Made by a program: the position numbers and the translations under genes. Below the pieces are notes generated by a model, which was given only the letters and a program-made list of their open reading frames with translations, was not told the origin of the DNA and did no database searches. From an uncultured Candidatus Saccharibacteria bacterium (GTDB lineage: Bacteria; Patescibacteriota; Dojkabacteria; GCA-002793355): 64,000 bases of DNA. Position 1 is the stretch's first letter; every line of letters begins with the position of its first letter. Of this stretch, positions 6,463 through 42,665 are shown in pieces. The DNA lies in contig CAZGEO010000001.1 in NCBI GenBank assembly GCA_964525295.1, forward strand, positions 376,662 through 440,661, given 5' to 3'.

Positions 6463-7583
6463 ATAAACTTCTTTTTGAAGTTTTCATAACTGCCCAATTT
6501 CCTAAAGTTTATTGAAAATCTATTATCGGATAACTTTCGAATTATTACCGAATCAAGACCAATAATTCTCAATCTGTCATAAGTTAAGAGTTCGCCTTCA
6601 TTGAGGCCCAAAACCTCGCGTAACAACCATTTTCCAAGGGCTTTATTAGGATTTGACATCAAAGCTTTATCACCATCTTGACATATAGCAGCATTCATCT
6701 CCTTACCATTAGGTAACTCTATATCAAAAGGCACTTTTCTCGAAGGAAAAAAATTTGGGAATTTATGATTTATCCAAGCAGGTATTTGAATGTAAACTTC
6801 ATCTGCATTTCGTTTTCTTCCTCTTGCGTTCCATTGATTCAATTGGCTTCTTTCTGGTACAGATTTATCTTTATCAGAGTACAGTGGTAGGTAAATGTAT
6901 TCTAAGCTTTGTTGTTCAGAATATTCTAAATCTGTTGCGAGATTTCCCACCAAGTCTTCAAGTACCTCAAATGGGTCATCAATAATATTTACAGGTATTT
7001 CAATCAATTCTGCTGGAGTAGAGAAACGTTTATATAACGTGCTTTTAGAAAGGTTAAAACTGTATTCATTGAAACCATCATTGAATCTAATAACGTTGTC
7101 TTTTTCATTTACATTCGATATCGACTCGATATCTACTTTATTCATGTCTGTATCGTATACAAGCATTAAACCCTTTTTCCTTGTAATACAATGATAAGCG
7201 AGTGTTTCCAAGCCATGAATTCGCTTAGTCGCTTCTAGTCTCTCATTTCTAAGAAAGGACACTATTTGAACTATTTCATCAACCTTCTTTCCAGAATATA
7301 ATTTCTTATCTCTATTGAATTCGGCTATCTTCTGAATTGTACGACCATTACCTTCTATAAAAGTTTTTATCCCTAGACCAATATTTTGTACACTCGCATC
7401 TGCTGAAACATCTGATCTTGAAAGATTTTTTGCATGAAATGCCTTACAGAACAAATTTTCAGACACTCTGTAGCTTACATATGGAACATTTGTGTCTGCA
7501 AATAAATTGGATAACGATCCAACAATTTGAAGTAACTTTTTATATGTTTCTATCTCCTCGACTTTTCTAGTATTAAGAAACAT
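6459..7583 (-). CDS. Putative type II restriction endonuclease (cognate of adjacent C5-MTase)
   Basis: A 374-aa soluble protein sits immediately downstream of a C5 cytosine methyltransferase on the same strand, with 2 nt between the genes. It has no homology to housekeeping families that I recognise. Confidence 0.5.
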   Translation of the reverse strand: MFLNTRKVEEIETYKKLLQIVGSLSNLFADTNVPYVSYRVSENLFCKAFHAKNLSRSDVSADASVQNIGLGIKTFIEGNGRTIQKIAEFNRDKKLYSGKKVDEIVQIVSFLRNERLEATKRIHGLETLAYHCITRKKGLMLVYDTDMNKVDIESISNVNEKDNVIRFNDGFNEYSFNLSKSTLYKRFSTPAELIEIPVNIIDDPFEVLEDLVGNLATDLEYSEQQSLEYIYLPLYSDKDKSVPERSQLNQWNARGRKRNADEVYIQIPAWINHKFPNFFPSRKVPFDIELPNGKEMNAAICQDGDKALMSNPNKALGKWLLREVLGLNEGELLTYDRLRIIGLDSVIIRKLSDNRFSINFRKLGSYENFKKKFM

Positions 7584-7585
7584 TT

Positions 7586-8563
7586 TTATTCCTGACTTAA
7601 AGCTAAGTATAGGCTTTTTGCTATTCTTTCGATCACAGGAACACTCACAGAATTTCCAAACTGTTTATAGAGCTGAGAATCAGCTATCAAAGGCAATTTA
7701 AAATTACGAGGAAATCCTTGAATTCTTGAACATTCTTTTGGTGTTATTTTTCTAATAATTTTACCCTGCCTGATAATTGGAACATTATGTCCCCCCATCC
7801 CCATGTTCGCTGTTAAAGTGGGAAAAACATTGTTTTTATTCTCTCTTACGTAAACCCTTCTCCATTGGTAAACGGTATCCTCTCTAGTTACAGAATCTTT
7901 CAATTTTGAAAATAAGTTTTTATTGTTGTATACGTACTTTTCATCTACATCAGAATCGAGAATATCTTTGATTCCCTTGTCCCGCTTGAGAGGATTTGGG
8001 AATTCAAATGAATCATAGTGTTTTTTCTGTTTGAATCCTACAATATATACTCTCTCTCTGTTTTGCGGTAAATTGCCATACTCCATCGAATTAAGCACCT
8101 TATACTTAACATAATATCCGAGTTCTTTTAATCGCTCGAATATAATTTTGAAAGTCCTCCCCTTATCATGTTTCTCTAAATTTTTAACATTCTCAAGAAA
8201 GAATGCGATAGGTTTAGTATCTTTAATTATTCTATCGATTTCGAAAAATAAATTTCCTCGCCCCTTTTCATCTTCAAAACCTTTTCTATAACCTGCAATG
8301 GAAAATGCTTGACATGGAAAACCACCTAAAAGAATATCATACTTCGGCAACTCTTCACTTTTTAAATCACGTATATCTTTAGTATCAAGTTTAATCGTTC
8401 CGAAATTCAAATCATATGTTACTTTACAATATTTATCGAAATCATTTGCATAAACAGTCTCAAATCCTTCAGAATTTTCAAACCCCAATCTAACTCCGCC
8501 AATACCGGCGAACAAATCGATTGTTTTAAATACTTTCTTTTTATTCATATCTATATTGTACAC
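7586..8563 (-). CDS. DNA (cytosine-5)-methyltransferase, M.HhaI-like
   Basis: Motif I is FAGIGG. Motif IV is GFPCQAFSIAG. Motif VI is ENV. Motif VIII is QNRERVYIVGF. Motifs IX/X are QFGNSVSVPV. Similarity to my recollection of M.HhaI runs along most of the length, apart from the variable TRD. Confidence 0.9.
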   Translation of the reverse strand: MYNIDMNKKKVFKTIDLFAGIGGVRLGFENSEGFETVYANDFDKYCKVTYDLNFGTIKLDTKDIRDLKSEELPKYDILLGGFPCQAFSIAGYRKGFEDEKGRGNLFFEIDRIIKDTKPIAFFLENVKNLEKHDKGRTFKIIFERLKELGYYVKYKVLNSMEYGNLPQNRERVYIVGFKQKKHYDSFEFPNPLKRDKGIKDILDSDVDEKYVYNNKNLFSKLKDSVTREDTVYQWRRVYVRENKNNVFPTLTANMGMGGHNVPIIRQGKIIRKITPKECSRIQGFPRNFKLPLIADSQLYKQFGNSVSVPVIERIAKSLYLALSQE

Positions 8564-9528: not shown

Positions 9529-12500
9529 TTATTTGACCGGATACACCATCAAGTTCTCAGCAATCAAGCGAACACCACCACTAAAACTTGGTAATTTGTT
9601 AATTACTAAACCTTTCTTACCGGCAAACTTACTCAATATTTTGTATCCCGGATCTAAGATTCGTAAGTAATAATCGCCATTTTTCACAACGAAATTATAC
9701 CCACCTCGCTTATTAGTGAAAGTTTTCGCAACCATCGTGTCGAATTCTTTCTCAAACAGTCCAATTTCTAGACCGCTGACGATTTTGCCATCTACACCAT
9801 TTACCGTTCCGTAAATTTTTGGCTTACTCAAATAGACTGCAAGTTTTAACACTAACAAGATTGCATAAATGCCAATAATTACGTAGTTTACTGTAACAGG
9901 ATACAGGTAACTAACCACAACGCTATATACAAGCCCCGCAACCAGAACAATTGGGCTAATGAGTGAAATTACCTCACTCGTGAAATTAGTTGCATATTTA
10001 GTGAACAATTCTCCTTTACTTCGCTTAACTGGGTCAAGAGGAATCGAAATCGTGAGTAATTCGTTATCTTCCTTAATTTCAATCACTTCTCCTTTATAAA
10101 TATTCGAAAATCCACTATCTGTATCGCTTGAAGCAACAAGTTTCGAGGGATAGGTAAATTCAGGATGAACGACCTTGATCACATACTGCCCTTTTTTCGG
10201 AGTTAGTTTGAAAATTCCCTGCGCGTCAGTGACAACGGTATCTACAAGTCTTCCAGACTTTGCATCCCACAAGCGTACTATCGCCCGCCCCACCATCTTT
10301 TTTGATACAGCGTTATACACTACTCCCCATGGCGTTCGTTTCTTACGTCGGTCTATCAACCCCGCTATCGCCATCCAGATATTTCCGTGCGCGACACCTA
10401 TCTGCATTGCAATAGTCTCAAGTGCAACGACGCCAATAAGCATCCCACCCGCCCCTTCCCAAGGGTACGCTGCGACGACATCAAGGTGTTTCGTTTGCAA
10501 TTTTTCGCAACTACCTTTACGGGCATAAAGCGTAATATCTTTTGAAGATTGCAATGAAATTGTTGCTGAACCAGAAAGTGGAAGATTTTCCGCAAAGGCA
10601 TTAATTGCCACGGTATCGGCTTGTTGTACATTCCACGTAATGGTGAAGTTCTCTCCTTTTTTGACCATCTTCGTACTAATAATGAAATCTTTAATAACTG
10701 GGCAGATTTCTGCGGAAATTGGGCTACCAGTTGGCACTATTGTTGTAACGACTACTTGCTGTACCTGAACGGTGACTGTTGCTTTGATTATCTTTCCTGA
10801 ACCTGTTTTTGCCGAGATTTCATAGGTTGTTGTGACTTTTGGTGAAACTTGTAACGTACCACTAGCACCAACTGCACCAATTGCTGGATTGATTGATAGA
10901 TCTGTAACGTTACTACTTTGCCATTGCAATGTTACCGATTCGCCAACCTTAATTTTTGACGCAGATGCGCTAATACCAAGAGATGGTGTTTTAGCAACGA
11001 CTACTGGAATAACCGTAATTGTTACTGACGCTTGCATCGTACTACCATCACCTTTTTGCCCAGTAATTGTATACGTGGTGGTTGCACCTGGTGTTACCGT
11101 CCGTGTACCATTAGCATCAACGGAACCAATATTCTGCGAAATACTGAGATTTGATAATTGTGTACTTTGCCATTGCAAAACGACGCTATTGCCTGGATTA
11201 ATCTGTGTTGCGGAAGCTGTCAATGTCAAAGTTGCAACAGTAGGAACAGGTAAAACGGTGATTGTTACAGATGCATTAACCGTTTCTCCAGTTTGAATGT
11301 TTTGCCCCGAGATTACGTACGTAGTTGTTGCTGATGGAGATACTTCGCGAGTGCCTGACGCTGAAACAGCGCCTACACCGTTATTAATTGACAAGTTGGT
11401 CAAGTTTTCACTACTCCATTGCAAGGTTGTTGCATTACCCACTATCAGCTCAGTTGCTGATGCTTGCAAACTTACTGTACCTACCAAGTTATTAACGGTT
11501 ACTGTAACCGAAGTGCGGAACGTTTCATTTAACGGACTAGTACCCGAAATTTCATAAGTAGTTGTTGAATCTGGAAAGATTACTAATGATCCTGCGGCGC
11601 CTACGGCGCCGATACCGTTATCAATTGATAAATTCGATAAATATTCACTTGACCACGATAGCGTCACACTATTTCCATTAATAACTGGATTGGGAACAGC
11701 TGTAATTGAAATTGTCGGCTGTACCTCTTCAACAAAAATTGTAACTGACGAAGTTACCGTTTCATCAGCTTCATTTGTTCCAGTTATGACATATGTTGTT
11801 GTTTCAAGAGGTGACACCTCAATACTTCCTGTAGTGCCAACACTTCCGATGCTGTTGTTAATTGAAAGATTCGAAATATAATTACTTTGCCATTGCAACG
11901 TTGTCGTTTGCCCCTGAATAATCTCAGTACTTGTTGCGCCAATAGATAAATATGGAATTCTTGGTGGGTTAACAGTAAATACCAAGGAATCTATCAATGT
12001 CGAGTTCACCGCATCTTCTACAGTTACTGTAAAAGTGCCTGACTCAAAGAATCTAATTGCGTTTGTAAATGTTCGTTGCCCGTTATCACCTGAAGTAAAC
12101 GTATATTCATCAGGTAATTGTGCAGAAAGGCTATCAGATCGAAACCTGACCGTTCCACGATATGTCGTGTCAACAGAACCAACTGAATTTAATGCAGCAA
12201 CGGTTACTGTTGCTGAGTCAGAAAATTCGAGTGTTGTATTCGGGCTTTGCATATCGAGAGCTGCGACTGTCGTAATCGTGAAATCTGCTGCATTCCCAGC
12301 GTTATCACCATAATCTCGCCATTCACTTTCGAGATTGTTATCGATATTTACCGTTCTCACTCGCCATTTGTACGAAGCACCCATTTCTAAATTCGCAACT
12401 TGAACACTCAGCACTACCGGTGGTCCACCGGTGAATATGACTGAATCTGAATCGTGAATTCCTGTCTGACCATCAAATAATTGATCAATTTTTTTCAATT

Positions 12501-15500
12501 CAACCTGAATCTTCAAGCGCTTAGGTGATGCGATTGTAGCGCCAGCATCGTACGCATCTGCCTTAAGTGTCACCGTAGTTCCGTTAATAACGCCACCAAC
12601 TGGAATTGCACTTTCAGTCACGCCAAGAACATCTGCTACTTTAGTAGCTGCCATAGCATAAACGATTTTTTCATCAGAAATTGAAGATTGCGCTGCTGGC
12701 TTAAGTTCGAATTGTTCGCGATATTGTGATGGCCATGGAACTGAGTTTGGCTCATCAGGGTAAGTACCGGTCTGACCTACCTGCGCACCATAGTTAGCCG
12801 GATCACTCGGAGTACCTTCTGCAACTGAAACAATCGCATTTACATAACATGGTCCAGAGTTATACAAAATTGAGACTCTTCCACCACCACCTGAACCACC
12901 GTCTACATCACTATTTCCACCTTCGCCACCACGTGCAGACAAAGTTCCCGAAATATCACAGGTGTTACCATGCAAAAGAATTGAACCACCAGCACCACCA
13001 CCGCCACCAGGACTGCCCGTACGCCCAATTGAACCATCCATGATAATCGAACCACGCACCGTAACATCACCTTTTGTGTAAACACCATCTTGCAACAAAC
13101 CTGAAGCAATAATTGCAAAGGCACCACCACCGTTTCCACCCATCGCACCCTGAGAACTTGCACCACCACCAGCACCTAACGTCTTCGGCACTAATTGCTC
13201 ACCATACTTCACACCACCTTGAGCGGGTTGGTTAACGCCATCACCCTGACCTTGACCGCCGTTACCACCGTTTGCACCACCACCACCACCGGAATAACCA
13301 ACACCACGATTACCACGACCTTGCCCTTCATCTGTTGGGAATCCTTGACCAGTTCCAATTATTGATGCTCCTGAATCAAGCAAGAAATTACCTTTTACGT
13401 TGAGGGTGACACCTTTACCAATCACTTGTGTGAGGTATTCATTGGTAAATTCGGCTAAAGTATAACCATTGTATTCCGCCTTAATTTCATCTGGCGTCAT
13501 TGCTCTGTTTTTGAGCGAAAATTCATCAAGATAACCAGCATAATACGGATCATCATTCCATGGGCTTCGACCAATGAATTTGTTTGCTCGTACCACATTA
13601 GGAATGGCAATTAATTGACTACTTTGTAACAAATTGCCATCGCGATAAATCGATGCATAACCAGTTGCCGAAACGGTAACTGCATAATGATGCCACTCGT
13701 TATTTATTATGCCGTTTGTCACCCGAATCCCACCAGCAGAACTAGACCCGTTGTATATTTCAAACCAAAGATCTGAACCTGTACCATAGCGAGACAAAAG
13801 CACATTGTTTGATGGAGTACCATTATTAAAATCAAAGAATCGTGCGTAATTAGGACTTGATGTCGGACGAGCCCAGAACGAAACACTGAACCCTGTTAAG
13901 AAATCCATTGGGCCATTTGGCAATGATACATAGGATCTGTTACCCGAGAAATAGGCTGATTGCCCATATACACCAGTTTTTGTAACTACTTCTTGCGCAT
14001 ATGGAGCTCCGTTTAATGAGACTTCATCACTAAAGTAATTTACCTTCTCATCATCAAAATGCCACAGAATTAGAGTTTCTGCATCGGCTGACAACTGCGA
14101 TGCAGTATTATTTAAGTTGGTTACCTCGATTGCAGAGATTTCACGGGAAAGAACTCTCACTTCATCAATAATTCCAGCGAAATAATGGCTCGTTGGTGCA
14201 TTCGCCCAACCGTTGAGATTGTCATAGCCGACTCGCACAAATGCAGTGTACGGATAATACGAAGTATTCGCATCAGAGGCAACTAATTGCCCATCTACAT
14301 ACAAACGCATACCGTTTACCGTTGAAAAGGTAGCTATAACATAATGCCACTCATTATCATTATAAGAATTCGCAGAGGTAATGACACGATTACCGTTGTT
14401 ATACATACCGAAGTTAATTCGCCCATCGTTAGAAAGATACAACGTTCTATCATTATAGTTTGTTGCAGTTGTTGACGAATCGCTAAATCCAATAAGCTTA
14501 CCGCCTACCGTTGTATTGGTTTTAAATCGTAATTCTAATGAGTAATCTACTGGTGTTGCCATCGAAACTCCCGAAACTACCTGACTATTGTAACCATTGA
14601 ATTGTAATGCATTACCATAAACTCCCGTCACTGACTTTTCACCGAGCCCGAACGCGCGATTAGATTGCGACAATGACGAATCTGCATATGATAATTCTGT
14701 TTCGTCTAACTGCCACAAGGCCACAGTATTCGTAGTCGCTGTCGGTGCTGTTTCTGAAGTTGCACTTGCAAGAATCTGTTCATTAGTCAAAAGACCTGAC
14801 GTAAGTCTTACTGCATCTAGTTGCCCAAAGTTTTGCCTACAGCCTGCAGTATTACAATAATTTCCTAAGTAACTAATAGCACCAGTCGGTCTACTCGCAA
14901 CACTACCAACTGAGACTCCATCTACAAAGAATTCTGTTGTTGAACCTGTAGATCTTGTCGCAATATGGTGCCAACCAGGTGTTAATGTGTTGACATTGAA
15001 TGATGTGGCGTAAAATGCGTTTGTATATAAACCAAGTCGTCCTGTATTTTCAACAATAATCGGATGTAAACCACCTTCAATTCTACCTACTGCGGTACGC
15101 CATCCATCAATAGTTGTAGGCAATGGGAATTTCGCCCATAATTCGAGTGTATAACTATCTGGTAAGGTAATTGGCTCAATCTTAATAACCTGATTTTGTA
15201 AAATACTCTGGCCACGACCGAATTTTCCAGATACGGCAGTAACACCACCAAATTGCATTGCATTATTAGCATTTATTGAAGAATCTACGAATCCCTGTTC
15301 ATCAAAATGTAACAACGCGACACTCTCATCAATCTTTACTGGAGCATGCGCTGCAGGCATTGTTGAGTTTTCAACAACTGCCTTAGTGTCACTCTTTACC
15401 CAAGCTGAAACATTTTGCCCAATTGTCACATCATTAAATGTGTAGTCACCTGCATCAAAATCGCCTGCCCTCGCTGCAACATTATTGTTGTCGACAATTA

Positions 15501-18500
15501 ATGAACCACCTCGTTCTGCATCAACGCCACGATTTTCAAAATATACTGTTCCAGGACCACCATTTCCGCGACTGCCTGTACCACCACGAGCCTGTAATGA
15601 AGTTGTTGACAGATCGAAACCGTCATTGGTGCGATAGTACAAAGCTATTCTCCCACCAGCACTTCCACCGCCATCCCAGTTTGAACCATTATATGCATTT
15701 GCGAGAATTTTGCCCGAACCAGACAGTTGATTTGTTTCTACCCAAATTGAACCACCGGTGCCACTATTAACCCCACCTGTATAGACTCCCAATGATTCAA
15801 TATTTCCATCAAGTCTCAATGCATTGTTTACAATCAAACGCATTGCACCGCCACCAGGAGAAACCGTATATCCACCACTTCCGAGATCTACTGGTTCATA
15901 TAAATTACCGTATGATGCACGAACTCCATTACCACCAGAGTACCCATATCCACCATATGATGCGCCTCCATGATAACCACCGGCTTCAATAGCTGCGCCT
16001 GGCCCACGATACCCACCGTAACCTTTACCAGAAGCCGTAATTAAACCACCTGTTTCAATAGTTAGGTCATTTGTTTGCAAGGTAACACCATAATCGTCTG
16101 TCCAAACAGAATCACCATCATCATATGAATTCATCGTTACTGTACCTAAAGGTCCAACGGTCAGAGTATCAATTTGATAACCATTGTTTTTGTTGTGATA
16201 CCAAGTATTCGCATTTAACGTTAAACCTGCAGAACTTGTTTGACCTACCGTAATTGCTGTTACTGGTGCACCTTCGATACCTTCGAGTTTACCTGCAATT
16301 TCTACATTGACTCCATCAATTGAGAAAGTTCCTGCACCAGTATATTTCAATGTACCTTGCACAGTTAGCAACGGTTTTGTGGCATCACCCGAGAAACCAC
16401 TAGGGCTTGTTATTTCAAGAATTCCTGCATTGCCCAAAAAGCGTACATTACCGTACCTACTTAATTCTATTCCTTTCAATTTGTATGTGCCTTCAACAAC
16501 GCCCGCATATTGGCCATTAACACCGTTGTTGTCAACAATCAAACGACCTGAATATCGCTCATCTACGCCGAGATTTTCTACATATACAGTTCCCGGACCA
16601 CCATTTCCACGGCCACCCGGACCACCGCGAGCTTGTAATGAATTCTTTGACAAATCAAAACCATCATTATTTCGATAATAAACTGCAATACGACCACCAG
16701 CACTACCACCACCATCCCAGTTTGTTGAAGTTGCACCATTGGCCGTTAATTTTCCTGCACCTGTAAGTTCATCAGTTTCTAACCAGATTGAACCACCTGT
16801 ACCACCATTTGCTTCTACGCCAGTATACACACCAGAAGTTTCAATAGTACCATTAATCGTAGAAGTTCCCGCGACTGAAATTTTAATTGCACCACCACCG
16901 GGAGATACTCGATACCCACCACTTCCTAGCGTGGTTGGTTCATACATACTTCCGTACGGATTGCGCACGCCATTTCCACCTGGATTACCAAGACCACCGT
17001 GAGAAGCACCGCTATGATTACCACCTGCCTCTACGGCTGCTCCTGGCCCACGATACCCGCTATAGCCATTACCTGTTGCAGTCATCATACCACCTGCATC
17101 GACGTTAAAATTCATTGTGGAAAGAGCCAGACCATGATCATTTGACCAATCTGAATCACCATTATCATAAGAGCGTACATAAACTACTCCTGTTGAACCA
17201 ATATCTAGCAAGGCAAATTCATATGGGGTGTCATATGAATAATTCCATGTGCGCGCATTTAGTGTTAAGTAGCCCGCAGAAGTTTTTCCAACTGTTATTG
17301 AATCGATATTTTCAATTTTCCCTTCGATTGCATAATGCCCGTTATTCTTAATATTAAACGGTTGCCCCCCAATATTTCGCAAGATACCTTTAACGGTAAC
17401 TCTTGCAGGATTTGTATCGACATTTACGGTATTTTCATCTACCTCAAGTACCCCAACGGTTTGATTACCATCAACAGTTACGTTACCTTTGCCTCGCAGT
17501 AAAATCGATTTCAGAGTATATGTGTCTGCGGGTAAATAAGCACCTGTTGTCGGGGCAGATGCGTGATTCCCATTATAAACAAGGAGTGTTCCTTGTTGGG
17601 GAGAATCTGTACCCTTTTGTTCGTAATAAATTGTTCCTGCACTTCCACCGTAACCATAATTTGCATTTTGATATCGACCACCGTAGGCGTTCACCGTGTT
17701 TTCATTAAGAGCTAACCCTTCAAGAGTTGAGTAATAAATTGCGATTCTACCACCACTTCCTCGACCTGTTGAAGCTGCATACCCACCACCGTTTGCACGA
17801 ATAACTGGAGTTCCTGTTGTTGAGCTCAATTTATTCGTGTCAATCCAAATACTTCCACCAGAAGGACTCGAATACCAACAACCATAACGCGTTGGATCAG
17901 CACTCGCATCAATAATACCATCGACGCGAAGTTCATTTGCGACGGTCAATTTCATTGCACCACCACCGAGTCCATTACTCGTTTCACCAGTATCTGCACC
18001 ACTACCTAGAAAGAGACTTCCATAAATTGTTCCGTACGGAACACCACCAACACCACCTGGACTACTACCACCATAACCACCGTATGAAGCACCGCCACAA
18101 CTTGCGGCGCCTGTACCACGACCAGCTGCATATCCGCGTGATATTGCATCAATCTTTCCGCCAGTTGCTACTGTTAAATTGTTGACTGAAAGTGAAACAC
18201 CATAATCATTTGTCCAGTTTGTATCACCGTTATCGTATCCTTGCATGTACAAACTACCATTTGCTGCAACGGTTATATCACCAAACTGCCAAGGTAACGT
18301 ATCATTGTGAGCCCATGTATTCGCATATAAAGTTACCCCTGCTGCACTACTTTCACCGATTTTTATTGCAGAAACACCCTGGGCATCGCCAGCTAACGCA
18401 ACGTTAACACCATTTACTCCCAAAGCAACCCCCGATTCGACTGGAGAATACTCGAATACACCGTTTATCGTAATCGAGGCAACATTACCCGTTGAACCAA

Positions 18501-21500
18501 CCAATGAATTACCGTTCGTTACCGTCAATTTCCCTGCCGAACTATTGCCCGCAAAAGTCACATGACCGCCATTAACTGCCTTAATTTCAGACAATACATA
18601 ATCACCCACAGGCACATATGCCCCACTTATTGAGGCTGTTGCATGATTTGCATTCGCAATCAAAAGCTTACCCTGTTGTGGGGTATCTACTCCTTTCTGT
18701 TCATAATAAATTGTACCTGCGCTACCTCCTTTACCATAATTACCATTCTGATAGCGTCCACCGATTGCCAGTACCGTATTTTCGTTAATTGCTAAACCTT
18801 CAAGAGCTGAGTAATAAATTGCGATTCTACCGCCACTTCCTCGACCAGTTGAAGCTGCATACCCACCACCGTTTGCACGAATGACAGGTGTTCCTGTAGT
18901 TGAACTTAGCTTATTGGTGTCGATCCAGATACTTCCTCCTGAACCACTTGAACCCCAGCACCCTGAACGTGTTGGATGAGCACTCGCGTCGATTATGCCA
19001 TCGACCTTAAGCTCGTTTGCAACGGTCAGTTTCATTGCACCACCACCAGGACCACTGCCTGATTCATTATCTGAACCGCTTCCAAGTGCAAGGCTACCAT
19101 AAATTGTGCCATACGGAACTCCACCTGCATTATTTGGGCCATTACCACCATAACCACCATAAGAAGCTCCACCACACCAAGCAGCGCCATAACCTCTCGC
19201 ATAACCGTAACCTCTTGCTACAGCATCAATATACCCACCTGTTGCTACAGTAAGATTATCAACTGATAAGGCGACACCATAATCATTCGACCAATTTGAG
19301 TCACCGTTATCGTAACCTTGCATGACTAACAAACCATTACTTGCAACGGTAATATTGCCAAATTCCCATGGAGTTGTATCATTGTGAGCCCAAGTATTTG
19401 CATAAAGCGTTACGGCAGATGTTTGTGTCGCACCAATAGAAATATCATTTATGCCAACAACGTCACCCTTAAGACCTAATTCAACACCTTCAACTTCTAG
19501 TGTTTCACCAGGATTTTCGGGAATGTACTTAAGTGTACCTTCTACATTAACCTGCGATAACGTAGAATCACCCTGAATTCCTTCTTTCGATGATAACTGT
19601 AAACTACCAGTTGTGGCATCACCTTTGAACAAAACATGCCCTTTTCTCGTTGCAATTATTTTCTTGAAAATATAGTTACCTGCGGGAACATATGCTTCAC
19701 GAGGATTCCCACTCGAGCGACTGTCTATAAGCAATGTTCCTTGTTGAGAAAGATCAACACCTAACTGTTCTACGTATACCGTACCAGCGCCACCACCCTG
19801 CCCATATGAATCGTTTTGATTACCACCATATGATTGCAAGTGCAAAGAATCAATTGCGAAACCATTATTGTTTGCGTAATACAATGCAACACGACCACCA
19901 CTTCCTCGACCAATTTCACTATTTGCACGAATAATACCTGTTCCAGTTGTTGAAGCAATTGTCGTTGCCTCGACCCAAACTGAACCACCAGATGCAGTAG
20001 AATTCCAGCATCCTAATGCGCCAGAATATGCGTTTGCCGAAATTGCTCCTTCTACTGTTAGAGTTCCTGAAAGCGTTAACTTTATAGCACCACCACCACT
20101 TCCTCGCTCTGAAGCACCGCTTCCGAGAAGAACACTTCCATATATCGAACCGTAAGGAGTTTTAGCAGCATTATATGGACCATTACCACCGTAACCACCA
20201 TAGGAAGCACCTGCACAATTTCCCCACCCTGGACCTCTACCTACGGCATAACCGGTTGCATCGGCACTAACTACCGCTCCCGATTCAACTAGCATATCAT
20301 CAGCCAGAATTGTTACACCATAATCATTTGACCAATCTCCATCGCCGTTGTCGTAACCTTGTAACGTCAAAGTTGCACCAGTTCTTACCGTTAACTGCCC
20401 AAGACCACGGCAATCGAAAACTCCACCAGGAACACTTGAGGCATTCCAGGTTGTTGCTTGATCAATAATGATTCCAGGACACGTGCCAAGTTGCGCCACA
20501 AACATAATTGAAGGCGAAACTCCGGTTATACCGTTGCCGTCACTTACTCTAATTTGAATATTTTCTGTGTACGAATAGGTCGCAGTATTGGTAGTTCCGA
20601 CGCCGTTTGTTAGTGTTATTGTTTCAGGAGCTAAGGTTCCCAACCCAGGAGACACCTGATCATATGAAGAAACCGGATATAACGTTACAGAACCATTATG
20701 AGGTACCGTATTACCGTACTTGTCTTTTGCTGTTACGGTTAAACTAAAGTTTGCATCTACCAAAACCAAACTTGAAGATGGTACAACCTGATAGGAAACA
20801 ATTTGATCTGGCACAGTACTCACCGTGAAGGTAACAGAATATCCAGTTGCGTAACGCCATACATTCATGGTGTTATTATTGATTCCTGCAGTACTTCCGA
20901 GTGTCCACGTTGCGGTTAATTCACCCCATTGATCTGTTGTATGCTGTTTATTGGTTACTAAACCACCACCACTAGTTACTGTCCAATTAAAATCTGGAAC
21001 AAAAGGCACGCCATATCCTGCTGCATCGACTGCACGCACGCGTGGTGCTGGATTTAACGGTTGGCCTGCTGCACCAGAAATGCCGTTTCCTTCAACAATA
21101 ATAAGTGAAGCCATCGGACCAGAAACGGTAAAATCACTATCGTTAACGGAATTGCCACCATATTGCACCCATGGGGAATATACGCCACTTGCATTAACAA
21201 TTCGTGCTTGCCATTTGTATTGTTCTGATACTGTCAAACCTGTAACTTCAGCGTACCCACAGTATTGACTGATTTGTACGCCTGATTGATCGGGAATGTC
21301 GTTACAGCTTTTATTACTTGCCAAGGTTACCTGTCCACCGGTTGGGATATTTTGGAATGCATCGGTCTTTTTTCGCACTTCGATCTGCAAACGCTCGTTT
21401 TCGCCTTGAATATTTGAGGCGAAAGTAATCTTTTGGCTTGTTGTCAGATAATCAATATCTAGTCTGCGATTTACAAAAGAAGTTGTATTTGCAGTTTCGT

Positions 21501-22485
21501 AAAATCGTAATACTGTTGGCGCAGCAGGAGCACACCCTGGGCCAATCTTAAAACCATCCTGACCATTTTGTGCACCAAGCCCTTTGTCAATGAATACCGA
21601 ACCTGAATATGACAATGTCGTGTTACAAATCATGACGACTCGTCCACCACCACCACCACCACCGACGTACGTTGCTGTGGCATCGGCACTACCACCACGA
21701 GCTGAAACAGTACCGTTTCCTGCAAGTACATTTGCTTGAATCCAAATAGAACCACCTGCGCCACCACCACCAGAAGTAACGCCATCACCACTTTTTGCAC
21801 CCAGTAAACCGTTTGCTGAAATTTCACCGTTAATAGTTACTGTTCCGGAAGATTCAATTCTTATTGCACCACCACCAGCTCCACCTGCTCCGCCCATACC
21901 GCCATCTGCGCCGGCACCACCTAAAGTAATCGGGGACTCGAGCAAACCATAGCTACCACCGGTTGAACCTAATACAACACCGACACCACCAGACGTATTA
22001 CCAGCACCACCTGCTCCACCATGACCACCACCAGAACCTGCAGCAGTACCTGTTGATGCAGTCGCAGACGCTAACGTTCCTGAAGAAGCATCGGTACTAC
22101 CAACCGTATAACCCTGCCCTGACGCAGTGATTTCACCACCATTTTCAATCGTTAAGTTACCAACTTTAAGCTGGACGCCCTTATCATCTGCTACATCAGC
22201 ATTTGCCGAGATTGAACTTTTCAATATCAACTTACCTGTACTGGTGATTGTAATATCTTGGGCGCTACAATCAACTATATTGTCTTCATTTGTAGGGGTA
22301 ATTTCAATTGTTGAATCGATTGTTGTTGGCAAAGAACAAGTTGCTGCACGCAATTGCGGGCCATTTTGCTGCATTTGACCAGCCAACGTTGAAAACATCA
22401 ATGAAAGAAATAGGAAATAGGCAAGCGTGACTTTATGAATTTGAGCTGCGATTGCGAGTGCGTGAGTCAAGCGGATACTTTTCAT
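9529..22485 (-). CDS. Giant (4318 aa) secreted surface protein, probable adhesin. It contains Gly-rich beta-helix modules, five ~360-aa tandem repeats, three LamG/ConA-like lectin domains, FN3/Big-like domains, six Ig-like repeats and a C-terminal beta-sandwich/2-TM anchor module.
   Basis: The single uninterrupted ORF is 12,957 nt. It has an N-terminal signal peptide. GGxGGxGG...SIWI...GG motifs are typical of right-handed beta-helix. Repeated YDNGDxxWxNDYGV modules occur. Three NEWHH-type LamG_3 motifs occur. Six ~95-aa repeats have the form TLxWxSxxxxNLSIxxxIGxVxxxGxxxVxPxxTTTYxItG. C-terminal hydrophobic helices are flanked by CarboxypepD_reg-like segments. Confidence 0.85.
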   Translation of the reverse strand: MKSIRLTHALAIAAQIHKVTLAYFLFLSLMFSTLAGQMQQNGPQLRAATCSLPTTIDSTIEITPTNEDNIVDCSAQDITITSTGKLILKSSISANADVADDKGVQLKVGNLTIENGGEITASGQGYTVGSTDASSGTLASATASTGTAAGSGGGHGGAGGAGNTSGGVGVVLGSTGGSYGLLESPITLGGAGADGGMGGAGGAGGGAIRIESSGTVTINGEISANGLLGAKSGDGVTSGGGGAGGSIWIQANVLAGNGTVSARGGSADATATYVGGGGGGGRVVMICNTTLSYSGSVFIDKGLGAQNGQDGFKIGPGCAPAAPTVLRFYETANTTSFVNRRLDIDYLTTSQKITFASNIQGENERLQIEVRKKTDAFQNIPTGGQVTLASNKSCNDIPDQSGVQISQYCGYAEVTGLTVSEQYKWQARIVNASGVYSPWVQYGGNSVNDSDFTVSGPMASLIIVEGNGISGAAGQPLNPAPRVRAVDAAGYGVPFVPDFNWTVTSGGGLVTNKQHTTDQWGELTATWTLGSTAGINNNTMNVWRYATGYSVTFTVSTVPDQIVSYQVVPSSSLVLVDANFSLTVTAKDKYGNTVPHNGSVTLYPVSSYDQVSPGLGTLAPETITLTNGVGTTNTATYSYTENIQIRVSDGNGITGVSPSIMFVAQLGTCPGIIIDQATTWNASSVPGGVFDCRGLGQLTVRTGATLTLQGYDNGDGDWSNDYGVTILADDMLVESGAVVSADATGYAVGRGPGWGNCAGASYGGYGGNGPYNAAKTPYGSIYGSVLLGSGASERGSGGGAIKLTLSGTLTVEGAISANAYSGALGCWNSTASGGSVWVEATTIASTTGTGIIRANSEIGRGSGGRVALYYANNNGFAIDSLHLQSYGGNQNDSYGQGGGAGTVYVEQLGVDLSQQGTLLIDSRSSGNPREAYVPAGNYIFKKIIATRKGHVLFKGDATTGSLQLSSKEGIQGDSTLSQVNVEGTLKYIPENPGETLEVEGVELGLKGDVVGINDISIGATQTSAVTLYANTWAHNDTTPWEFGNITVASNGLLVMQGYDNGDSNWSNDYGVALSVDNLTVATGGYIDAVARGYGYARGYGAAWCGGASYGGYGGNGPNNAGGVPYGTIYGSLALGSGSDNESGSGPGGGAMKLTVANELKVDGIIDASAHPTRSGCWGSSGSGGSIWIDTNKLSSTTGTPVIRANGGGYAASTGRGSGGRIAIYYSALEGLAINENTVLAIGGRYQNGNYGKGGSAGTIYYEQKGVDTPQQGKLLIANANHATASISGAYVPVGDYVLSEIKAVNGGHVTFAGNSSAGKLTVTNGNSLVGSTGNVASITINGVFEYSPVESGVALGVNGVNVALAGDAQGVSAIKIGESSAAGVTLYANTWAHNDTLPWQFGDITVAANGSLYMQGYDNGDTNWTNDYGVSLSVNNLTVATGGKIDAISRGYAAGRGTGAASCGGASYGGYGGSSPGGVGGVPYGTIYGSLFLGSGADTGETSNGLGGGAMKLTVANELRVDGIIDASADPTRYGCWYSSPSGGSIWIDTNKLSSTTGTPVIRANGGGYAASTGRGSGGRIAIYYSTLEGLALNENTVNAYGGRYQNANYGYGGSAGTIYYEQKGTDSPQQGTLLVYNGNHASAPTTGAYLPADTYTLKSILLRGKGNVTVDGNQTVGVLEVDENTVNVDTNPARVTVKGILRNIGGQPFNIKNNGHYAIEGKIENIDSITVGKTSAGYLTLNARTWNYSYDTPYEFALLDIGSTGVVYVRSYDNGDSDWSNDHGLALSTMNFNVDAGGMMTATGNGYSGYRGPGAAVEAGGNHSGASHGGLGNPGGNGVRNPYGSMYEPTTLGSGGYRVSPGGGAIKISVAGTSTINGTIETSGVYTGVEANGGTGGSIWLETDELTGAGKLTANGATSTNWDGGGSAGGRIAVYYRNNDGFDLSKNSLQARGGPGGRGNGGPGTVYVENLGVDERYSGRLIVDNNGVNGQYAGVVEGTYKLKGIELSRYGNVRFLGNAGILEITSPSGFSGDATKPLLTVQGTLKYTGAGTFSIDGVNVEIAGKLEGIEGAPVTAITVGQTSSAGLTLNANTWYHNKNNGYQIDTLTVGPLGTVTMNSYDDGDSVWTDDYGVTLQTNDLTIETGGLITASGKGYGGYRGPGAAIEAGGYHGGASYGGYGYSGGNGVRASYGNLYEPVDLGSGGYTVSPGGGAMRLIVNNALRLDGNIESLGVYTGGVNSGTGGSIWVETNQLSGSGKILANAYNGSNWDGGGSAGGRIALYYRTNDGFDLSTTSLQARGGTGSRGNGGPGTVYFENRGVDAERGGSLIVDNNNVAARAGDFDAGDYTFNDVTIGQNVSAWVKSDTKAVVENSTMPAAHAPVKIDESVALLHFDEQGFVDSSINANNAMQFGGVTAVSGKFGRGQSILQNQVIKIEPITLPDSYTLELWAKFPLPTTIDGWRTAVGRIEGGLHPIIVENTGRLGLYTNAFYATSFNVNTLTPGWHHIATRSTGSTTEFFVDGVSVGSVASRPTGAISYLGNYCNTAGCRQNFGQLDAVRLTSGLLTNEQILASATSETAPTATTNTVALWQLDETELSYADSSLSQSNRAFGLGEKSVTGVYGNALQFNGYNSQVVSGVSMATPVDYSLELRFKTNTTVGGKLIGFSDSSTTATNYNDRTLYLSNDGRINFGMYNNGNRVITSANSYNDNEWHYVIATFSTVNGMRLYVDGQLVASDANTSYYPYTAFVRVGYDNLNGWANAPTSHYFAGIIDEVRVLSREISAIEVTNLNNTASQLSADAETLILWHFDDEKVNYFSDEVSLNGAPYAQEVVTKTGVYGQSAYFSGNRSYVSLPNGPMDFLTGFSVSFWARPTSSPNYARFFDFNNGTPSNNVLLSRYGTGSDLWFEIYNGSSSAGGIRVTNGIINNEWHHYAVTVSATGYASIYRDGNLLQSSQLIAIPNVVRANKFIGRSPWNDDPYYAGYLDEFSLKNRAMTPDEIKAEYNGYTLAEFTNEYLTQVIGKGVTLNVKGNFLLDSGASIIGTGQGFPTDEGQGRGNRGVGYSGGGGGANGGNGGQGQGDGVNQPAQGGVKYGEQLVPKTLGAGGGASSQGAMGGNGGGAFAIIASGLLQDGVYTKGDVTVRGSIIMDGSIGRTGSPGGGGGAGGSILLHGNTCDISGTLSARGGEGGNSDVDGGSGGGGRVSILYNSGPCYVNAIVSVAEGTPSDPANYGAQVGQTGTYPDEPNSVPWPSQYREQFELKPAAQSSISDEKIVYAMAATKVADVLGVTESAIPVGGVINGTTVTLKADAYDAGATIASPKRLKIQVELKKIDQLFDGQTGIHDSDSVIFTGGPPVVLSVQVANLEMGASYKWRVRTVNIDNNLESEWRDYGDNAGNAADFTITTVAALDMQSPNTTLEFSDSATVTVAALNSVGSVDTTYRGTVRFRSDSLSAQLPDEYTFTSGDNGQRTFTNAIRFFESGTFTVTVEDAVNSTLIDSLVFTVNPPRIPYLSIGATSTEIIQGQTTTLQWQSNYISNLSINNSIGSVGTTGSIEVSPLETTTYVITGTNEADETVTSSVTIFVEEVQPTISITAVPNPVINGNSVTLSWSSEYLSNLSIDNGIGAVGAAGSLVIFPDSTTTYEISGTSPLNETFRTSVTVTVNNLVGTVSLQASATELIVGNATTLQWSSENLTNLSINNGVGAVSASGTREVSPSATTTYVISGQNIQTGETVNASVTITVLPVPTVATLTLTASATQINPGNSVVLQWQSTQLSNLSISQNIGSVDANGTRTVTPGATTTYTITGQKGDGSTMQASVTITVIPVVVAKTPSLGISASASKIKVGESVTLQWQSSNVTDLSINPAIGAVGASGTLQVSPKVTTTYEISAKTGSGKIIKATVTVQVQQVVVTTIVPTGSPISAEICPVIKDFIISTKMVKKGENFTITWNVQQADTVAINAFAENLPLSGSATISLQSSKDITLYARKGSCEKLQTKHLDVVAAYPWEGAGGMLIGVVALETIAMQIGVAHGNIWMAIAGLIDRRKKRTPWGVVYNAVSKKMVGRAIVRLWDAKSGRLVDTVVTDAQGIFKLTPKKGQYVIKVVHPEFTYPSKLVASSDTDSGFSNIYKGEVIEIKEDNELLTISIPLDPVKRSKGELFTKYATNFTSEVISLISPIVLVAGLVYSVVVSYLYPVTVNYVIIGIYAILLVLKLAVYLSKPKIYGTVNGVDGKIVSGLEIGLFEKEFDTMVAKTFTNKRGGYNFVVKNGDYYLRILDPGYKILSKFAGKKGLVINKLPSFSGGVRLIAENLMVYPVK
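15500..20450 (-). repeat. Intragenic tandem repeats, period ~1080 bp, 5 copies. Copies 2 and 3 are near-identical at the DNA level.
   Basis: Stretches of 60-90 nt are identical at 17701-17830 and 18781-18910. The NTWAHND-encoding segments at ~18305 and ~19385 lie exactly 1080 bp apart. Diverged copies sit at ~16215, ~17250 and ~20380. Confidence 0.8.
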
Positions 22486-34153: not shown

Positions 34154-34334
34154 GAAAAATAAGCGTAGAACGGTGATTCCTGCTGCGAAGCAAAATTTAA
34201 TAGGTAATAATTATTACCCATTAAGTATTAACAAAACACGACAATAACAGTGTTTTGAAATTTTTATGTTTGGATATTGGAGTATTTAAACATTTAAGTA
34301 CTCTAATAATTGAACAGGTTTTGTGACAAAACAA

Positions 34335-40016: not shown

Positions 40017-42665
40017 CTACCCTGCCGTTTTAATTACTCGAAGCAAAAGATCTTTACTAATCGATCTTATGGGCTCATTCCCCTTGTTTGGCGCAATCAA
40101 CAACTCCTCAACTTGAGTATCATCAAAGAGCAACGCATATCTGTCATCCATAATTTTTAGTATAAATTCTCTATTTTCAACAACAAAAGCATATTCACCA
40201 GCATTATTTGTATACGTTGAATACTGTAGTGTCTTAAATTCAGGCTCATAAAGCCCAATTTGCACACCTTTAACCAAATTGCCATTAACTGTTTTAACAA
40301 TCCCTGTTACTTTTCCTTTATTAATGAGTACGTTTTTAACAACGATTACTGCCAAAGGCAACATAAATAGAAGTGTGTTTATAAATGTTGGAGAATAAAT
40401 CAGTACAATCGCTGAATATATAAAAAGCACTACATACACAGTATCTGCAAAGTATTCGACCACAAGACTCCAAAAACTACCGGCAATACTCAAGAACTTT
40501 TGCAAACCACCCACCTCAACTGGATCAATCGGAATCGAACAAACGACTGCACCTTTTACCTGCGCATCAATTTCTTCTCCTTTATATATCTTTTGGTATG
40601 CACCGTCAGTTTCAGTCAGAATTACTTTCGTTGGAAATTCATAACCTGCACGCTGCGCAAGAATTTTTATTTTCTTTTCGGTTTGAGTTAATTGAAAAAC
40701 ACCACGAGAATCAGTTACCAATGTACGCAAGAGCGATCCAGTTTCTGCATCATGAACACGTAATATTGCGCGAGCTACAGGATTTTTCGTTACCGAATCA
40801 TAGACAATCCCTGCAAGTCCTTGCTTACGTTTTTGCGTAGACAATGCAGCCATAAGCAAAGATCCCCAGAAATCGAACCCTGAAACAACAGCGAGGGTAA
40901 CAACCGCGAACCCACCACCCTCAATAAATGAACCGAATGCAGCCCCTTCTGAGCCAGAGTCATTTCCGGAAGAATCAATGTTTGTTGGAATCAACTGCCC
41001 GACAATCGGTAAAACGGATATTACATCAATAAAGTTATCTACAATAGAATCACCACCACCAGGTATAGAAGGGAATGCTGTAAGCGTAGGATTAATAGTT
41101 GCAGTCGCAGTTGGCGTTCCTGTACCCGTAGTTGTTACTGTACCAGTAACAGTAGTTGTTGGTGTTGCCGAAATTGACGGCGTTGCGGTTGCAGTAATAG
41201 TTAGCGTTGGCGTTGCAGTCACAGTAACGCTTGGTGTCGGCGTATCGGTTGGGGTATCGGTTGGCGTTGCAGTCGGTGTAGCAGTTGTAGTGGGAGTCGT
41301 TGTTGGCGTAGCTGTAGGAGTTGGAGTAACACCACCACTATCATCGAGATAGAAAACGCGAGCGTAGCGAGCGGAAGTTTCTCGATCAATAAATGAAATT
41401 ACTATATCGGTATCGACATGTTGAATCAAAACATTCTGCAAAATATTATCTGCAACCAAATCATCACCGACTTGTGACCACAAATTATTATTTGGATTAT
41501 ATTCATATACTGATGCAGTTGTTCCTCTATCAAGAATTGCCAGGTAACCACTAGCTCCATACTTAATTATTTGCGCACCATCTGCAGCAGGCAAGTCTTG
41601 CCCTCTTTGCACCCACCCACCGCCAGTATATTCATGCACATAGGTCTCAGCACTCGTGCTTGAAATTAGCACAATATTATTGTCATTATTAATAACTTGA
41701 GCATAATGATTGGCACTGCCAACTGGATATGAATAAGCAAGCGACATACCACCTGTTGTTGTTGTTGAGAAGATTCCATCGGAACGCAACAGGTAGAGAT
41801 TGCTATCATGATAAAAGAGAGCACTTGGACCAGAAATAATATTTACGCCAATTCCAGGCATACGAGAATAACCTCTTGCTAAAAGCGTACCAGTAGGTGA
41901 AATTGTGTTGAATGTAAAATATTCAGGAGCTTCAAGAGTGAATACGAAAGGATCAGTTGATATGACATTATAATCCTCAGATTGAACACCTTCTACAGTC
42001 AAGTAATTACCGTCAGAGAGACAAATAGACGCATTTGAATAAAAGGGAATATGTATAATGTCCGGATACGAGGGAATTTCCGTAGGATATGCAGGTGTTT
42101 CATAATAAGAATACGTAGATGTCATGACCCCTGATGAGATCCTTGCGGCAGCAAGTCTTGTAATAGGAATATTCGAACGCACAAGAGGAGAAGAACCAAA
42201 TTCATCGAAAATTAAGGAATAATTTCTACCAACCACAAAAACATCATTATTACTGCATGTTATCAAATTCGCTGGGAAATAATTCTCTACAGGCAAAATC
42301 CTATTTGCCAAAAGTTCATGTTGCGTAGACCTTATTTCATTTGCTGCATAACGCCTATCGTTGACCGCAGTGGCATTCGTATACAATAGATCAAACTGTT
42401 TCGTTACCTGATTAAATCTGTAATAGCTATCACTAGAATCTTGATACATGACAACATCATTATTTCCGTCCTTACCAATAAGTGGCACGAAATTGCCCCC
42501 GACACTAATTTCAGTCCATTCAGTAGTCGTTGTGCCTTTAACTTCAGACTTTTCATTCACTTCCTTCGATTGAGGAATATAGGAATTTTGCGATAACAAA
42601 ACGACCGCAGGCAAAAGGAGCAAAATCAAACTGACAAAAAAATATTGTTTTATCTGTGCAATCAT
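40017..42665 (-). CDS. Secreted 882-aa surface protein. It has an N-terminal signal peptide, a beta-rich domain, a Pro/Thr linker and a C-terminal beta-sandwich/2-TM anchor module paralogous to that of the giant protein.
   Basis: The signal peptide is MIAQIKQYFFVSLILLLLPAVVLLS. The PT-rich linker is (TPT)n. The C-terminal segments GIVYDSVTKNPVARAILRVHDAETGSLLRTLVTDSRGVFQL and TGIVKTVNGNLVKGVQIGLYEPEFK...YAFVV align with the C-terminus of the 4318-aa protein. The start overlaps the stop of the upstream 1499-aa gene (ATGA). Confidence 0.8.
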   Translation of the reverse strand: MIAQIKQYFFVSLILLLLPAVVLLSQNSYIPQSKEVNEKSEVKGTTTTEWTEISVGGNFVPLIGKDGNNDVVMYQDSSDSYYRFNQVTKQFDLLYTNATAVNDRRYAANEIRSTQHELLANRILPVENYFPANLITCSNNDVFVVGRNYSLIFDEFGSSPLVRSNIPITRLAAARISSGVMTSTYSYYETPAYPTEIPSYPDIIHIPFYSNASICLSDGNYLTVEGVQSEDYNVISTDPFVFTLEAPEYFTFNTISPTGTLLARGYSRMPGIGVNIISGPSALFYHDSNLYLLRSDGIFSTTTTGGMSLAYSYPVGSANHYAQVINNDNNIVLISSTSAETYVHEYTGGGWVQRGQDLPAADGAQIIKYGASGYLAILDRGTTASVYEYNPNNNLWSQVGDDLVADNILQNVLIQHVDTDIVISFIDRETSARYARVFYLDDSGGVTPTPTATPTTTPTTTATPTATPTDTPTDTPTPSVTVTATPTLTITATATPSISATPTTTVTGTVTTTGTGTPTATATINPTLTAFPSIPGGGDSIVDNFIDVISVLPIVGQLIPTNIDSSGNDSGSEGAAFGSFIEGGGFAVVTLAVVSGFDFWGSLLMAALSTQKRKQGLAGIVYDSVTKNPVARAILRVHDAETGSLLRTLVTDSRGVFQLTQTEKKIKILAQRAGYEFPTKVILTETDGAYQKIYKGEEIDAQVKGAVVCSIPIDPVEVGGLQKFLSIAGSFWSLVVEYFADTVYVVLFIYSAIVLIYSPTFINTLLFMLPLAVIVVKNVLINKGKVTGIVKTVNGNLVKGVQIGLYEPEFKTLQYSTYTNNAGEYAFVVENREFILKIMDDRYALLFDDTQVEELLIAPNKGNEPIRSISKDLLLRVIKTAG
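41080..41345 (-). repeat. Low-complexity Pro/Thr-linker coding repeats (GTNGGNGTNGC-type triplet periodicity)
   Basis: Plus-strand repeats of gttggcgttgcagtc / ggtgtcggcgtatcggttggggtatcggttggcgttgcagtcggtgtagca encode the (T/A)PT linker on the minus strand. Confidence 0.7.

Follow-up and report, generated by a model that had tools for sequence, protein, structure and literature searches.

A widespread C-terminal membrane module of Patescibacteria surface proteins, with three helices and two transthyretin-like beta-sandwiches

The window analysed here, a 64,000-nucleotide stretch of contig CAZGEO010000001.1, encodes two surface proteins, one of 4318 amino acids (aa; hereafter the giant protein) and one of 882 aa, which end in the same module of ~300–330 residues with three helices and two beta-sandwiches. 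The module is a widespread and so far unnamed C-terminal membrane module of the surface proteins of Patescibacteria, or the candidate phyla radiation (CPR), and is portable across unrelated ectodomains. We read it, with a probability of about 0.6, as a membrane anchor of the stop-transfer type whose folded foot lies in the cytoplasm. The G+C content of the window is 40.7%, and by sequence its related loci place it in Candidatus Dojkabacteria (CPR/Patescibacteria).

Two surface proteins with a common C-terminus

In BLASTP the two C-termini align over 252 residues with five gaps (149 bits, E = 7e-47, 35% identity, 61% positives), and the top score after shuffling one partner 200 times is 27 bits. 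This similarity had been proposed in an earlier note on the same DNA, and the peptide strings quoted there are all present in the translations. The N-terminal parts (3990 residues of the giant protein, 575 of the 882-aa protein) show no similarity better than E = 1.8, and the module is therefore the sole segment common to both. A hidden Markov model built from the two window copies finds no third copy within the window. Both proteins fit the profile of the family described below end to end (E = 1.6e-108 and 3e-75), the match stopping 1–5 residues before the end of the open reading frame (ORF). The module starts near 10452 in the giant gene and near 40919 in the 882-aa gene, in both cases inside the segments delimited by the earlier note. 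Two transmembrane (TM) helices had been counted there; a third hydrophobic helix, together with a basic run (RRKKR in the giant protein, QKRKQ in the 882-aa protein), is found just upstream of sandwich 1.

The giant protein opens with a hydrophobic, signal-like segment and continues with Gly-rich repeat blocks, three domains of LamG/ConA-like type (Pfam Laminin_G_3, E = 2e-46), about six immunoglobulin (Ig)-like repeats and the C-terminal module; it has orthologues in two Dojkabacteria loci (L001 and L003). At least five long Gly-rich blocks of ~350–400 aa each occupy residues ~600–2600, with the recurring motifs GYDNGD.[ND]WSNDYGV...GGSIW...GGRIA.YY and a beta-helix-like appearance; they have no Pfam match, and the LamG domains and then the Ig-like repeats come after them. 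In the 882-aa protein a signal peptide is followed by a globular region with no annotation, a stalk rich in Pro and Thr (residues ~444–531) and the module.

Distribution and carrier proteins

An exhaustive HMMER search with a four-sequence profile against 1.84 billion cluster representatives gave 4004 matches at E<=1e-3, 3071 at E<=1e-10 and 717 at E<=1e-30. Among the best 150 matches, most cover ~240–290 of the 293 positions of the profile as a single stretch, the remainder as two or three, and the carrier proteins are 261–4586 aa long. The distance from the end of the module to the C-terminus has a median of 2 residues and a 90th percentile of 20 (151 sequences, namely the best 150 matches and P0002). 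Matches thus span the hairpin and both sandwiches and stop at the protein end, in agreement with the earlier description of a distinct composite C-terminal module. The 21 retrieved loci have one module per gene, always C-terminal, also in proteins of >2500 aa. A genome-contig scan gave 5 loci and a metagenome-contig scan 8, the latter too few for a statistical neighbourhood analysis. A word-indexed search with the giant copy alone had returned two fragments, which implied that the module is rare; the exhaustive scan overturned this.

An indexed search with a 29-sequence alignment gave 168 matches at E<=1e-10, labelled 'hypothetical protein', 'carboxypeptidase regulatory-like domain-containing protein' and, in some cases, as prepilin or GspG-type. 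The organisms named are Uhrbacteria, Magasanikbacteria, Parcubacteria, Peregrinibacteria or 'Patescibacteria group', and the genome loci with the module belong to Dojkabacteria, to one record labelled Saccharibacteria and to Patescibacteria BroJett019. No source outside the CPR occurs among the named matches, which are about a quarter of the matches and do not include the weakest ones. The suggestion that the module is lineage-specific does not hold, given 717 clusters at E<=1e-30 and Dojka-, Uhr-, Magasanik-, Parcu- and Peregrinibacteria among the named matches.

The carriers are of several types. Signal-peptide-like N-termini were found in 143 of the 255 members retrieved, and 60 of the 255 are fragments or sequences that begin at the module. 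As to the check proposed in the earlier note, whether every match is C-terminal on a giant protein with a signal peptide, the position is C-terminal in the sequences examined, the N-terminus is signal-peptide-like in these 143 members, and the range of carrier lengths shows no restriction to giant proteins. A strict type IV pilin regular expression matches 13 of the 255 members, Pfam N_methyl matches 17 of 86 aligned members, and the N-terminus of P0227, MANKFRSGFTLTELLVV, is type IV pilin-like. The class III signal G|F-T-L-x-E (N_methyl, PF07963) is present in neither window protein. Pilin-like N-termini are one of several carrier types and therefore no feature of the module itself.

The pilin-like carriers (such as P0222, P0227 and P0245; loci L006 and L008) make up about one fifth of the aligned members and have ~550 aa, with a pilin/pseudopilin N-terminus (G|FTLxE), a small globular domain, an Ala/Ser/Thr/Val-rich linker and the module. 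A receiver domain stands at the N-terminus of 3 of the 255 members (P0027, P0075 and P0089). These proteins of 1900–2500 aa are built from a response-regulator receiver domain, membrane segments, a long region, which in P0089 includes beta-helix, cadherin-like and Big_9 domains, and the module; both of their ends would be cytoplasmic under the topology proposed below.

Fold and internal duplication

The module of the giant protein (a 326-aa query, window 9532–10509, minus strand) was modelled by AlphaFold2 from 86 sequences with a mean predicted local distance difference test (pLDDT) score of 87.1 and a predicted template modelling (pTM) score of 0.76; an alignment of 4 sequences gave a pLDDT of only 51. 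The model comprises a single helix at the position of TM1, sandwich 1, a TM2 helix with a polar N-terminal extension, a TM3 helix and sandwich 2 (residue limits in Table 1). Both sandwiches are of the seven-stranded prealbumin-like beta-sandwich fold. The giant protein scores 44.5 bits against CarboxypepD_reg (PF13620; cutoff 32.3), with the best stretch on sandwich 2, and 36.1 bits against the SdrD B-like domain (PF17210; cutoff 29.7) on sandwich 1. CarboxypepD_reg is matched by 70 of the 86 family members, and the SdrD B-like domain by 77 of the 86 at E<=1e-3. Every Pfam match of the 882-aa copy is below cutoff, and this copy is placed in the CarboxypepD_reg/transthyretin-like fold because it is homologous to the giant copy. 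The assignment of the soluble segments to this fold, made in the earlier note, is thus supported by Pfam scores above cutoff for the giant copy and by the AlphaFold model.

The family consensus of the sandwich 1 unit is GLRKKRKPWGvVYDSvTKePi.rAIVRL.d...gkLVeT.VTD..GvF.f....G.Y.i.V.k.gY.FPS...G..DG.Y.NiY.GE....SIPlDP. It is followed by a K/R-rich stretch, TM2, a short P..lN loop, TM3 and the sandwich 2 unit, K.K.wG.V.D..GkPv.GveIGLfD.eFnkLv.rRvTD..GrYrF.VP.G.Y.L. The near-invariant sandwich positions are W, G, Y, K, R, TD, G, P, D, Y, G and P-D-P, and the extended motifs specific to the family are RKKRKPWGVVYDSVTK, FPS, DG.Y.NIY.GE, SIPLDP and the P..LN loop. Both window proteins match the collinear order that defines the family, namely a TM helix, a basic cluster with PWG, a sandwich (FPS...SIPLDP), a TM helix, a short loop, a TM helix, a basic linker and a sandwich. 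In the giant protein TM2 and TM3 are linked by a 3-residue loop, YPV.

Sandwich 2 is a diverged repeat of sandwich 1. In many members the repeat is plain, as in P0042, where EPKKEKPWGVVYDSASLEPVPLAVV...IPVDK follows TM3; the FPS...DG.Y.NIY extension is lost from sandwich 2 in both window proteins. Compared by hhalign, the first unit (sandwich 1 with the upstream helix and basic linker) and the second (sandwich 2 with TM3 and its linker) match over 118 columns with a probability of 99.8% and E = 2.2e-28, and the alignment begins inside the helix that precedes each sandwich. The module can therefore be written as a unit of TM helix, basic linker and sandwich, present twice and joined by TM2. It arose by tandem duplication of a TM helix with its basic linker and transthyretin-like sandwich, with an extra helix joining the two units.

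Membrane topology

The charges that flank the helices are clearly asymmetric. In 137 members the mean net charge of the 15 residues before the upstream helix is -0.5 and that of the 15 residues after it is +3.1; the values are +1.9 before TM2, +0.2 for the TM2–TM3 loop and +2.5 after TM3. The basic linker after TM1 has 3.5 K/R per 10 columns in the family consensus, and the hydrophobic region at the TM1 position is conserved across the family. The apparent insertion free energy (dG) was taken as a simple sum over the Hessa biological hydrophobicity scale and is approximate. By this measure the TM2–TM3 region scores as membrane spans (median -0.4 kcal/mol for the better window and +2.0 for the second-best; +1.0 for TM2 and -0.4 for TM3 of the giant protein), and a single span, a marginal one, is seen in the upstream region (median +3.2). 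TM1 of the giant protein is semi-hydrophobic and is the probable stop-transfer helix. The ectodomains are acidic, with an abundance of Ser, Thr, Asn and Gly and 0.9% Cys; the module is basic (K+R 13.6%) and nearly free of Cys (0.1%), a contrast that points in the same direction as cytoplasmic sandwiches.

If the upstream region crosses the membrane once, the C-end of TM1, the N-end of TM2 and the C-end of TM3 are all opposite to the ectodomain, and the sandwiches tied to these ends would be cytoplasmic. From the flank charges, the number of credible spans and the helix connectivity of the AlphaFold model, the ectodomain is thus probably outside, with three TM helices and both sandwiches in the cytoplasm. 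In the rival arrangement, closer to the earlier note, both sandwiches are extracellular or in the wall zone and flank a hairpin with a short loop facing the cytoplasm; the upstream stretch would then either form another hairpin, which brings the TM helices to four, or not span the membrane. This arrangement agrees with the typically extracellular location of the fold family (SdrD B, CnaB and the transthyretin-like domains of carboxypeptidase D), and the two upstream sub-stretches and NPT motif of several subfamilies suggest an ancestral repeat of a hairpin plus a sandwich. It would, however, leave three basic flanks (+3.1, +1.9 and +2.5) outside and uncharged loops inside, contrary to the positive-inside rule. 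The second-best upstream window is implausible as a span, with an apparent dG whose median is +7.5 and which falls below +3 in only 4% of members, the upstream stretch between charged residues is only ~30–34 aa long in the window proteins and is modelled as one helix, and the repeat found by hhalign starts at the helix adjoining each sandwich and not at a hairpin. Extracellular sandwiches are on balance unlikely, and the charge distribution and helix connectivity probably put both on the cytoplasmic side.

Several points weigh against the cytoplasmic placement and the anchor built on it. TM1 is marginally hydrophobic, with an apparent dG of about +4 in both window proteins and a low pLDDT. In some subfamilies the upstream hydrophobic region extends over ~40 aa, is divided into two sub-stretches and contains an NPT motif that recalls the TM2–TM3 loop; this could be a second hairpin that places the sandwiches outside. 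The transthyretin-like and CnaB-like domains of known proteins are mostly extracellular, the positive-inside argument is a statistical one, and no cytoplasmic partner of the module was identified. A candidate salt bridge within the membrane, between E/D of TM1 and K of TM3, was rejected: the Lys sits where TM3 meets the cytoplasm, and the K/R content of TM3 proper is 0.00.

Proposed role

The homology, C-terminal position, fold, duplication, charge asymmetry and carrier range of the module are established, and we infer its topology and its mechanical or coupling role. In the stop-transfer anchor that we favour, the N-terminal signal would direct export of the ectodomain by Sec, transfer would stop at the semi-hydrophobic TM1 and the RRKKR behind it, and sandwich 1 would remain in the cytoplasm. 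TM2 and TM3 would then insert as a hairpin with an outer loop of 3–10 residues, and sandwich 2 would fold in the cytoplasm. The resulting anchor would cross the membrane three times and carry a compact, folded foot at the inner face, retaining adhesins, fibre-associated and pilin-like proteins in the single membrane. Such a foot would withstand extraction under load better than one helix, and could offer cytoplasmic partners a handle on the surface protein.

The portability of the cassette, its presence beside an already existing N-terminal helix (pilin-like and receiver members) and the conservation of its soluble parts suggest more than passive anchoring, and we speculate that this is resistance to extraction under load or contact with a cytoplasmic partner. 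Extended further, the module might be a coupling device across the membrane, found throughout the CPR, in which the cytoplasmic sandwiches are a load-bearing rivet and a handle for the cytoplasm on the surface proteins of host attachment, in analogy to the inside-out and outside-in coupling of integrins; receiver domains or the pilus machinery would be examples of a cytoplasmic side that uses this handle. We offer this idea tentatively, as one that is doubtful in its full form.

In a rival reading, which we regard as quite unlikely, the sandwiches in the cytoplasm serve chiefly for signalling or coupling, with outside-in or inside-out communication between the surface protein and the cell interior, and are not a passive anchor. 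The module is kept even where a membrane helix is already present at the N-terminus (pilin-type members), it is the only other cytoplasmic part of the three members with a cytoplasmic N-terminal receiver domain, and its sandwiches are conserved far above the need of a mere stopper. Against this, no partner or enzymatic motif was identified, no conserved neighbouring gene was found in the contexts inspected, the receiver fusions are rare (3 of 255), and signalling overlaps with the anchor without excluding it.

The position at the extreme C-terminus of many unrelated ectodomains, as in LPXTG and PEP-CTERM proteins, could also indicate a true sorting signal, recognised or cleaved by a dedicated enzyme (sortase, exosortase, rhombosortase-like or rhomboid) that frees the ectodomain or links it covalently to the wall. 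Rhomboid substrates have helices rich in small, helix-destabilising residues, and the upstream helix of the module is rich in such residues (A, G, S, T, P). No LPXTG-type motif stands beside TM1 in either window protein, where the basic cluster is followed by ~270 further residues and not by the protein end; the LPLSG of the giant protein is ~50 residues upstream of TM1, inside an Ig-like domain. Regular expressions, used as the main test because HMMER filters can miss very short models, found no PEP, PGF or GlyGly motif and no C-terminal domain of the type IX secretion system (T9SS). An NCBIfam scan at E<=1 returned only NikL and SdrD fragments and no sorting-signal model. The earlier statement that LPXTG, PEP-CTERM, GlyGly-CTERM and Por-type signals are absent is thus confirmed in that none adjoins the helices. 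There is no conserved motif of the cleavage type beside the helix, and no gene of a processing enzyme recurs in the six neighbourhoods inspected. With ~300 aa and two well-conserved folded domains the module is also far larger than any sorting tag known to us. A sorting signal is therefore improbable: of the sorting/anchoring function proposed earlier, anchoring is defensible, and sorting by a dedicated enzyme is unsupported, no recurrent neighbouring gene having been seen.

A mere generic resemblance of CarboxypepD_reg sandwiches with incidental hydrophobic segments, to which the match of generic beta-sandwich models alone among curated families might point, is refuted by the alignment (E = 7e-47), which keeps the two helices and the two sandwiches in collinear order, by hundreds of clusters that match the whole 290-position profile end to end and always at the C-terminus, and by the extended motifs that the family has of its own.

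Features of the window and neighbouring genes

Table 1. Coordinates of the two module-bearing genes, their module elements and other features of the window.
Feature	Position	Strand	Residues of AlphaFold query	Basis
Gene for 4318-aa surface protein (giant protein)	9529..22485	-		ORF list, translation
Giant protein TM1 AGGMLIGVVALETIAMQIGVAHGNIWMAIAGL	10357..10452	-	20-51 (326-aa query)	AlphaFold single helix, pLDDT only 43-72
Giant protein basic linker IDRRKKRTPW	10327..10356	-		Family consensus GLRKKRKPWG
Giant protein beta-sandwich 1 (GVVYNAV...SIPLDP), transthyretin-like / CnaB-like fold	10030..10326	-	62-160	
Giant protein helix 2: polar N-terminal extension KGELFTKYATNFTSE, then TM2 VISLISPIVLVAGLVYSVVVSYL	9904..10017	-	165-202	AlphaFold helix
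Giant protein TM3 TVNYVIIGIYAILLVLKLAVYL	9829..9894	-	206-227	AlphaFold helix
Giant protein beta-sandwich 2 (GTVNGVDGK...LMVYP), diverged repeat of sandwich 1	9538..9810	-	234-324	Pfam CarboxypepD_reg, AlphaFold, hhalign
Gene for 882-aa surface protein	40017..42665	-		ORF list, translation
882-aa protein TM1 GGGFAVVTLAVVSGFDFWGSLLMAALS plus basic linker TQKRKQGLAG	40809..40919	-		Translation, apparent dG
882-aa protein beta-sandwich 1 (GIVYDSVTK...CSIPIDPV)	40518..40811	-		BLASTP alignment to giant-protein sandwich 1
882-aa protein TM2–TM3 hairpin SFWSLVVEYFADTVYVVLFIYSAIVLIY / INTLLFMLPLAVIVVKNVLI	40323..40478	-		Translation, BLASTP alignment
882-aa protein beta-sandwich 2 (KVTGIVKTV...LLLRVIKTAG)	40020..40313	-		Translation, BLASTP alignment
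1499-aa protein	42662-47161	-		
325-aa ORF	22482-23459	-		
16S rRNA	38200-39750	-		
23S rRNA	34329-37468	-		
5S rRNA	28664-28778	-		
C-5 cytosine DNA methylase	7586-8563	-		E = 6e-92
Protein with NgoFVII-type C-terminal DNA-binding domain	6459-7583	-		

No partner gene is shared among the neighbourhoods of four family members. The pilin-like members lie in conserved housekeeping synteny (enolase, iPGM, Fpg ... CBU_0592-like, PAP2, YceG, DUF2207) and not in pilus operons, and two other inspected members are among unrelated genes.

In the window, the stop codon of the gene for a 1499-aa protein overlaps the start codon of the 882-aa gene. The 1499-aa protein begins with a signal/anchor and has repeats like those of phage tail fibres (PHROG tail-fibre families, to E = 3e-39) as well as an intramolecular chaperone domain of the Peptidase_S74 family (Pfam, E = 5e-13), and is without a C-terminal anchor; together with the 882-aa protein it may form a pair of a fibre and its membrane anchor. 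Upstream of the giant gene, a 325-aa ORF encodes several hydrophobic helices and has no Pfam match. Its stop overlaps the start of the giant gene at 22482-22485, which suggests that the two are co-translated; no homologue of this ORF is found in the retrieved loci, which exclude the DNA upstream of the orthologues of the giant gene.

The rRNA genes are split. The 16S gene, tRNA-Ile, tRNA-Ala and the 23S gene form one block, and the 5S gene is ~5.5 kb from it, with four ORFs between. The 23S match is 3140 nt long, compared with 2925 positions in the model, and the gene may therefore contain an insertion. The C-5 cytosine DNA methylase and the adjacent protein with the NgoFVII-type DNA-binding domain are a probable restriction-modification pair.

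Significance

The CPR, or Patescibacteria, make up a large share of bacterial diversity, and to our knowledge every cultivated member lives attached to a host cell. Little has been established on how these bacteria retain and control their surface proteins in a single membrane. The module marks several hundred protein families as membrane-anchored surface proteins, and its profile would therefore be a cheap means of listing, for any CPR genome, the candidate adhesins and proteins associated with pili. Sandwiches in the cytoplasm, if confirmed, would be the first conserved intracellular part found on these surface proteins. Since members are at present labelled 'carboxypeptidase regulatory-like domain-containing' or 'hypothetical', the module would justify a new curated domain family, one that is large, unannotated and, with its predicted function and topology, of clear value for CPR surface biology.

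Comparison with known families and sorting systems

Pfam (2025), NCBIfam (2026), PHROGs and the PDB hold no entry for the whole module (PHROGs gave no match for the module), and a full-text search of the literature found no description. By these searches the module matches no sorting domain described before. The Pam pilus proteins of the CPR differ from the module carriers and have single C-terminal helices. The NikL / HI1622 subunit of an energy-coupling factor (ECF) transporter (NF058648) likewise joins TM segments to a transthyretin-like domain in one small membrane protein, but the architecture and context of the module differ, and the scores of 25.9 and 14.7 bits are far below the cutoff of 100 and extend over only ~45 residues of sandwich 1.

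NOMO, a subunit of the BOS complex, and SlaB of Sulfolobus also combine beta-sandwiches with a C-terminal TM anchor. Their sandwiches are lumenal or outer and their anchor is one TM helix, without the hairpin, the duplication of TM helix and sandwich, or the basic linkers seen here.

The signals of the LPXTG-sortase, PEP-CTERM-exosortase, PGF-CTERM-archaeosortase and GlyGly-CTERM-rhombosortase systems resemble the module in that they stand at the extreme C-terminus of many unrelated secreted proteins, with a helix and then a basic cluster, and in that small C-terminal sorting or anchor signals are portable cassettes as well. A likeness can be drawn to the helix-plus-basic-tail anchors of Gram-positive and archaeal surface proteins, but by the tests for membership in those groups the module falls outside them. 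In contrast to the small sorting signals, it has no signature motif or partner enzyme that was seen, and its basic cluster is followed by ~270 residues with two folded domains and a hairpin; cleavage is not indicated.

The closest relatives by fold are the CarboxypepD_reg, SdrD-B and CnaB domains (PF13620, PF13715, PF17210 and PF17802), of which the known ones are soluble extracellular or lumenal spacers. The sandwiches of the module, in contrast, lie 4–10 residues from TM helices, carry the family extensions FPS...DG.Y.NIY.GE...SIPLDP, and are probably cytoplasmic.

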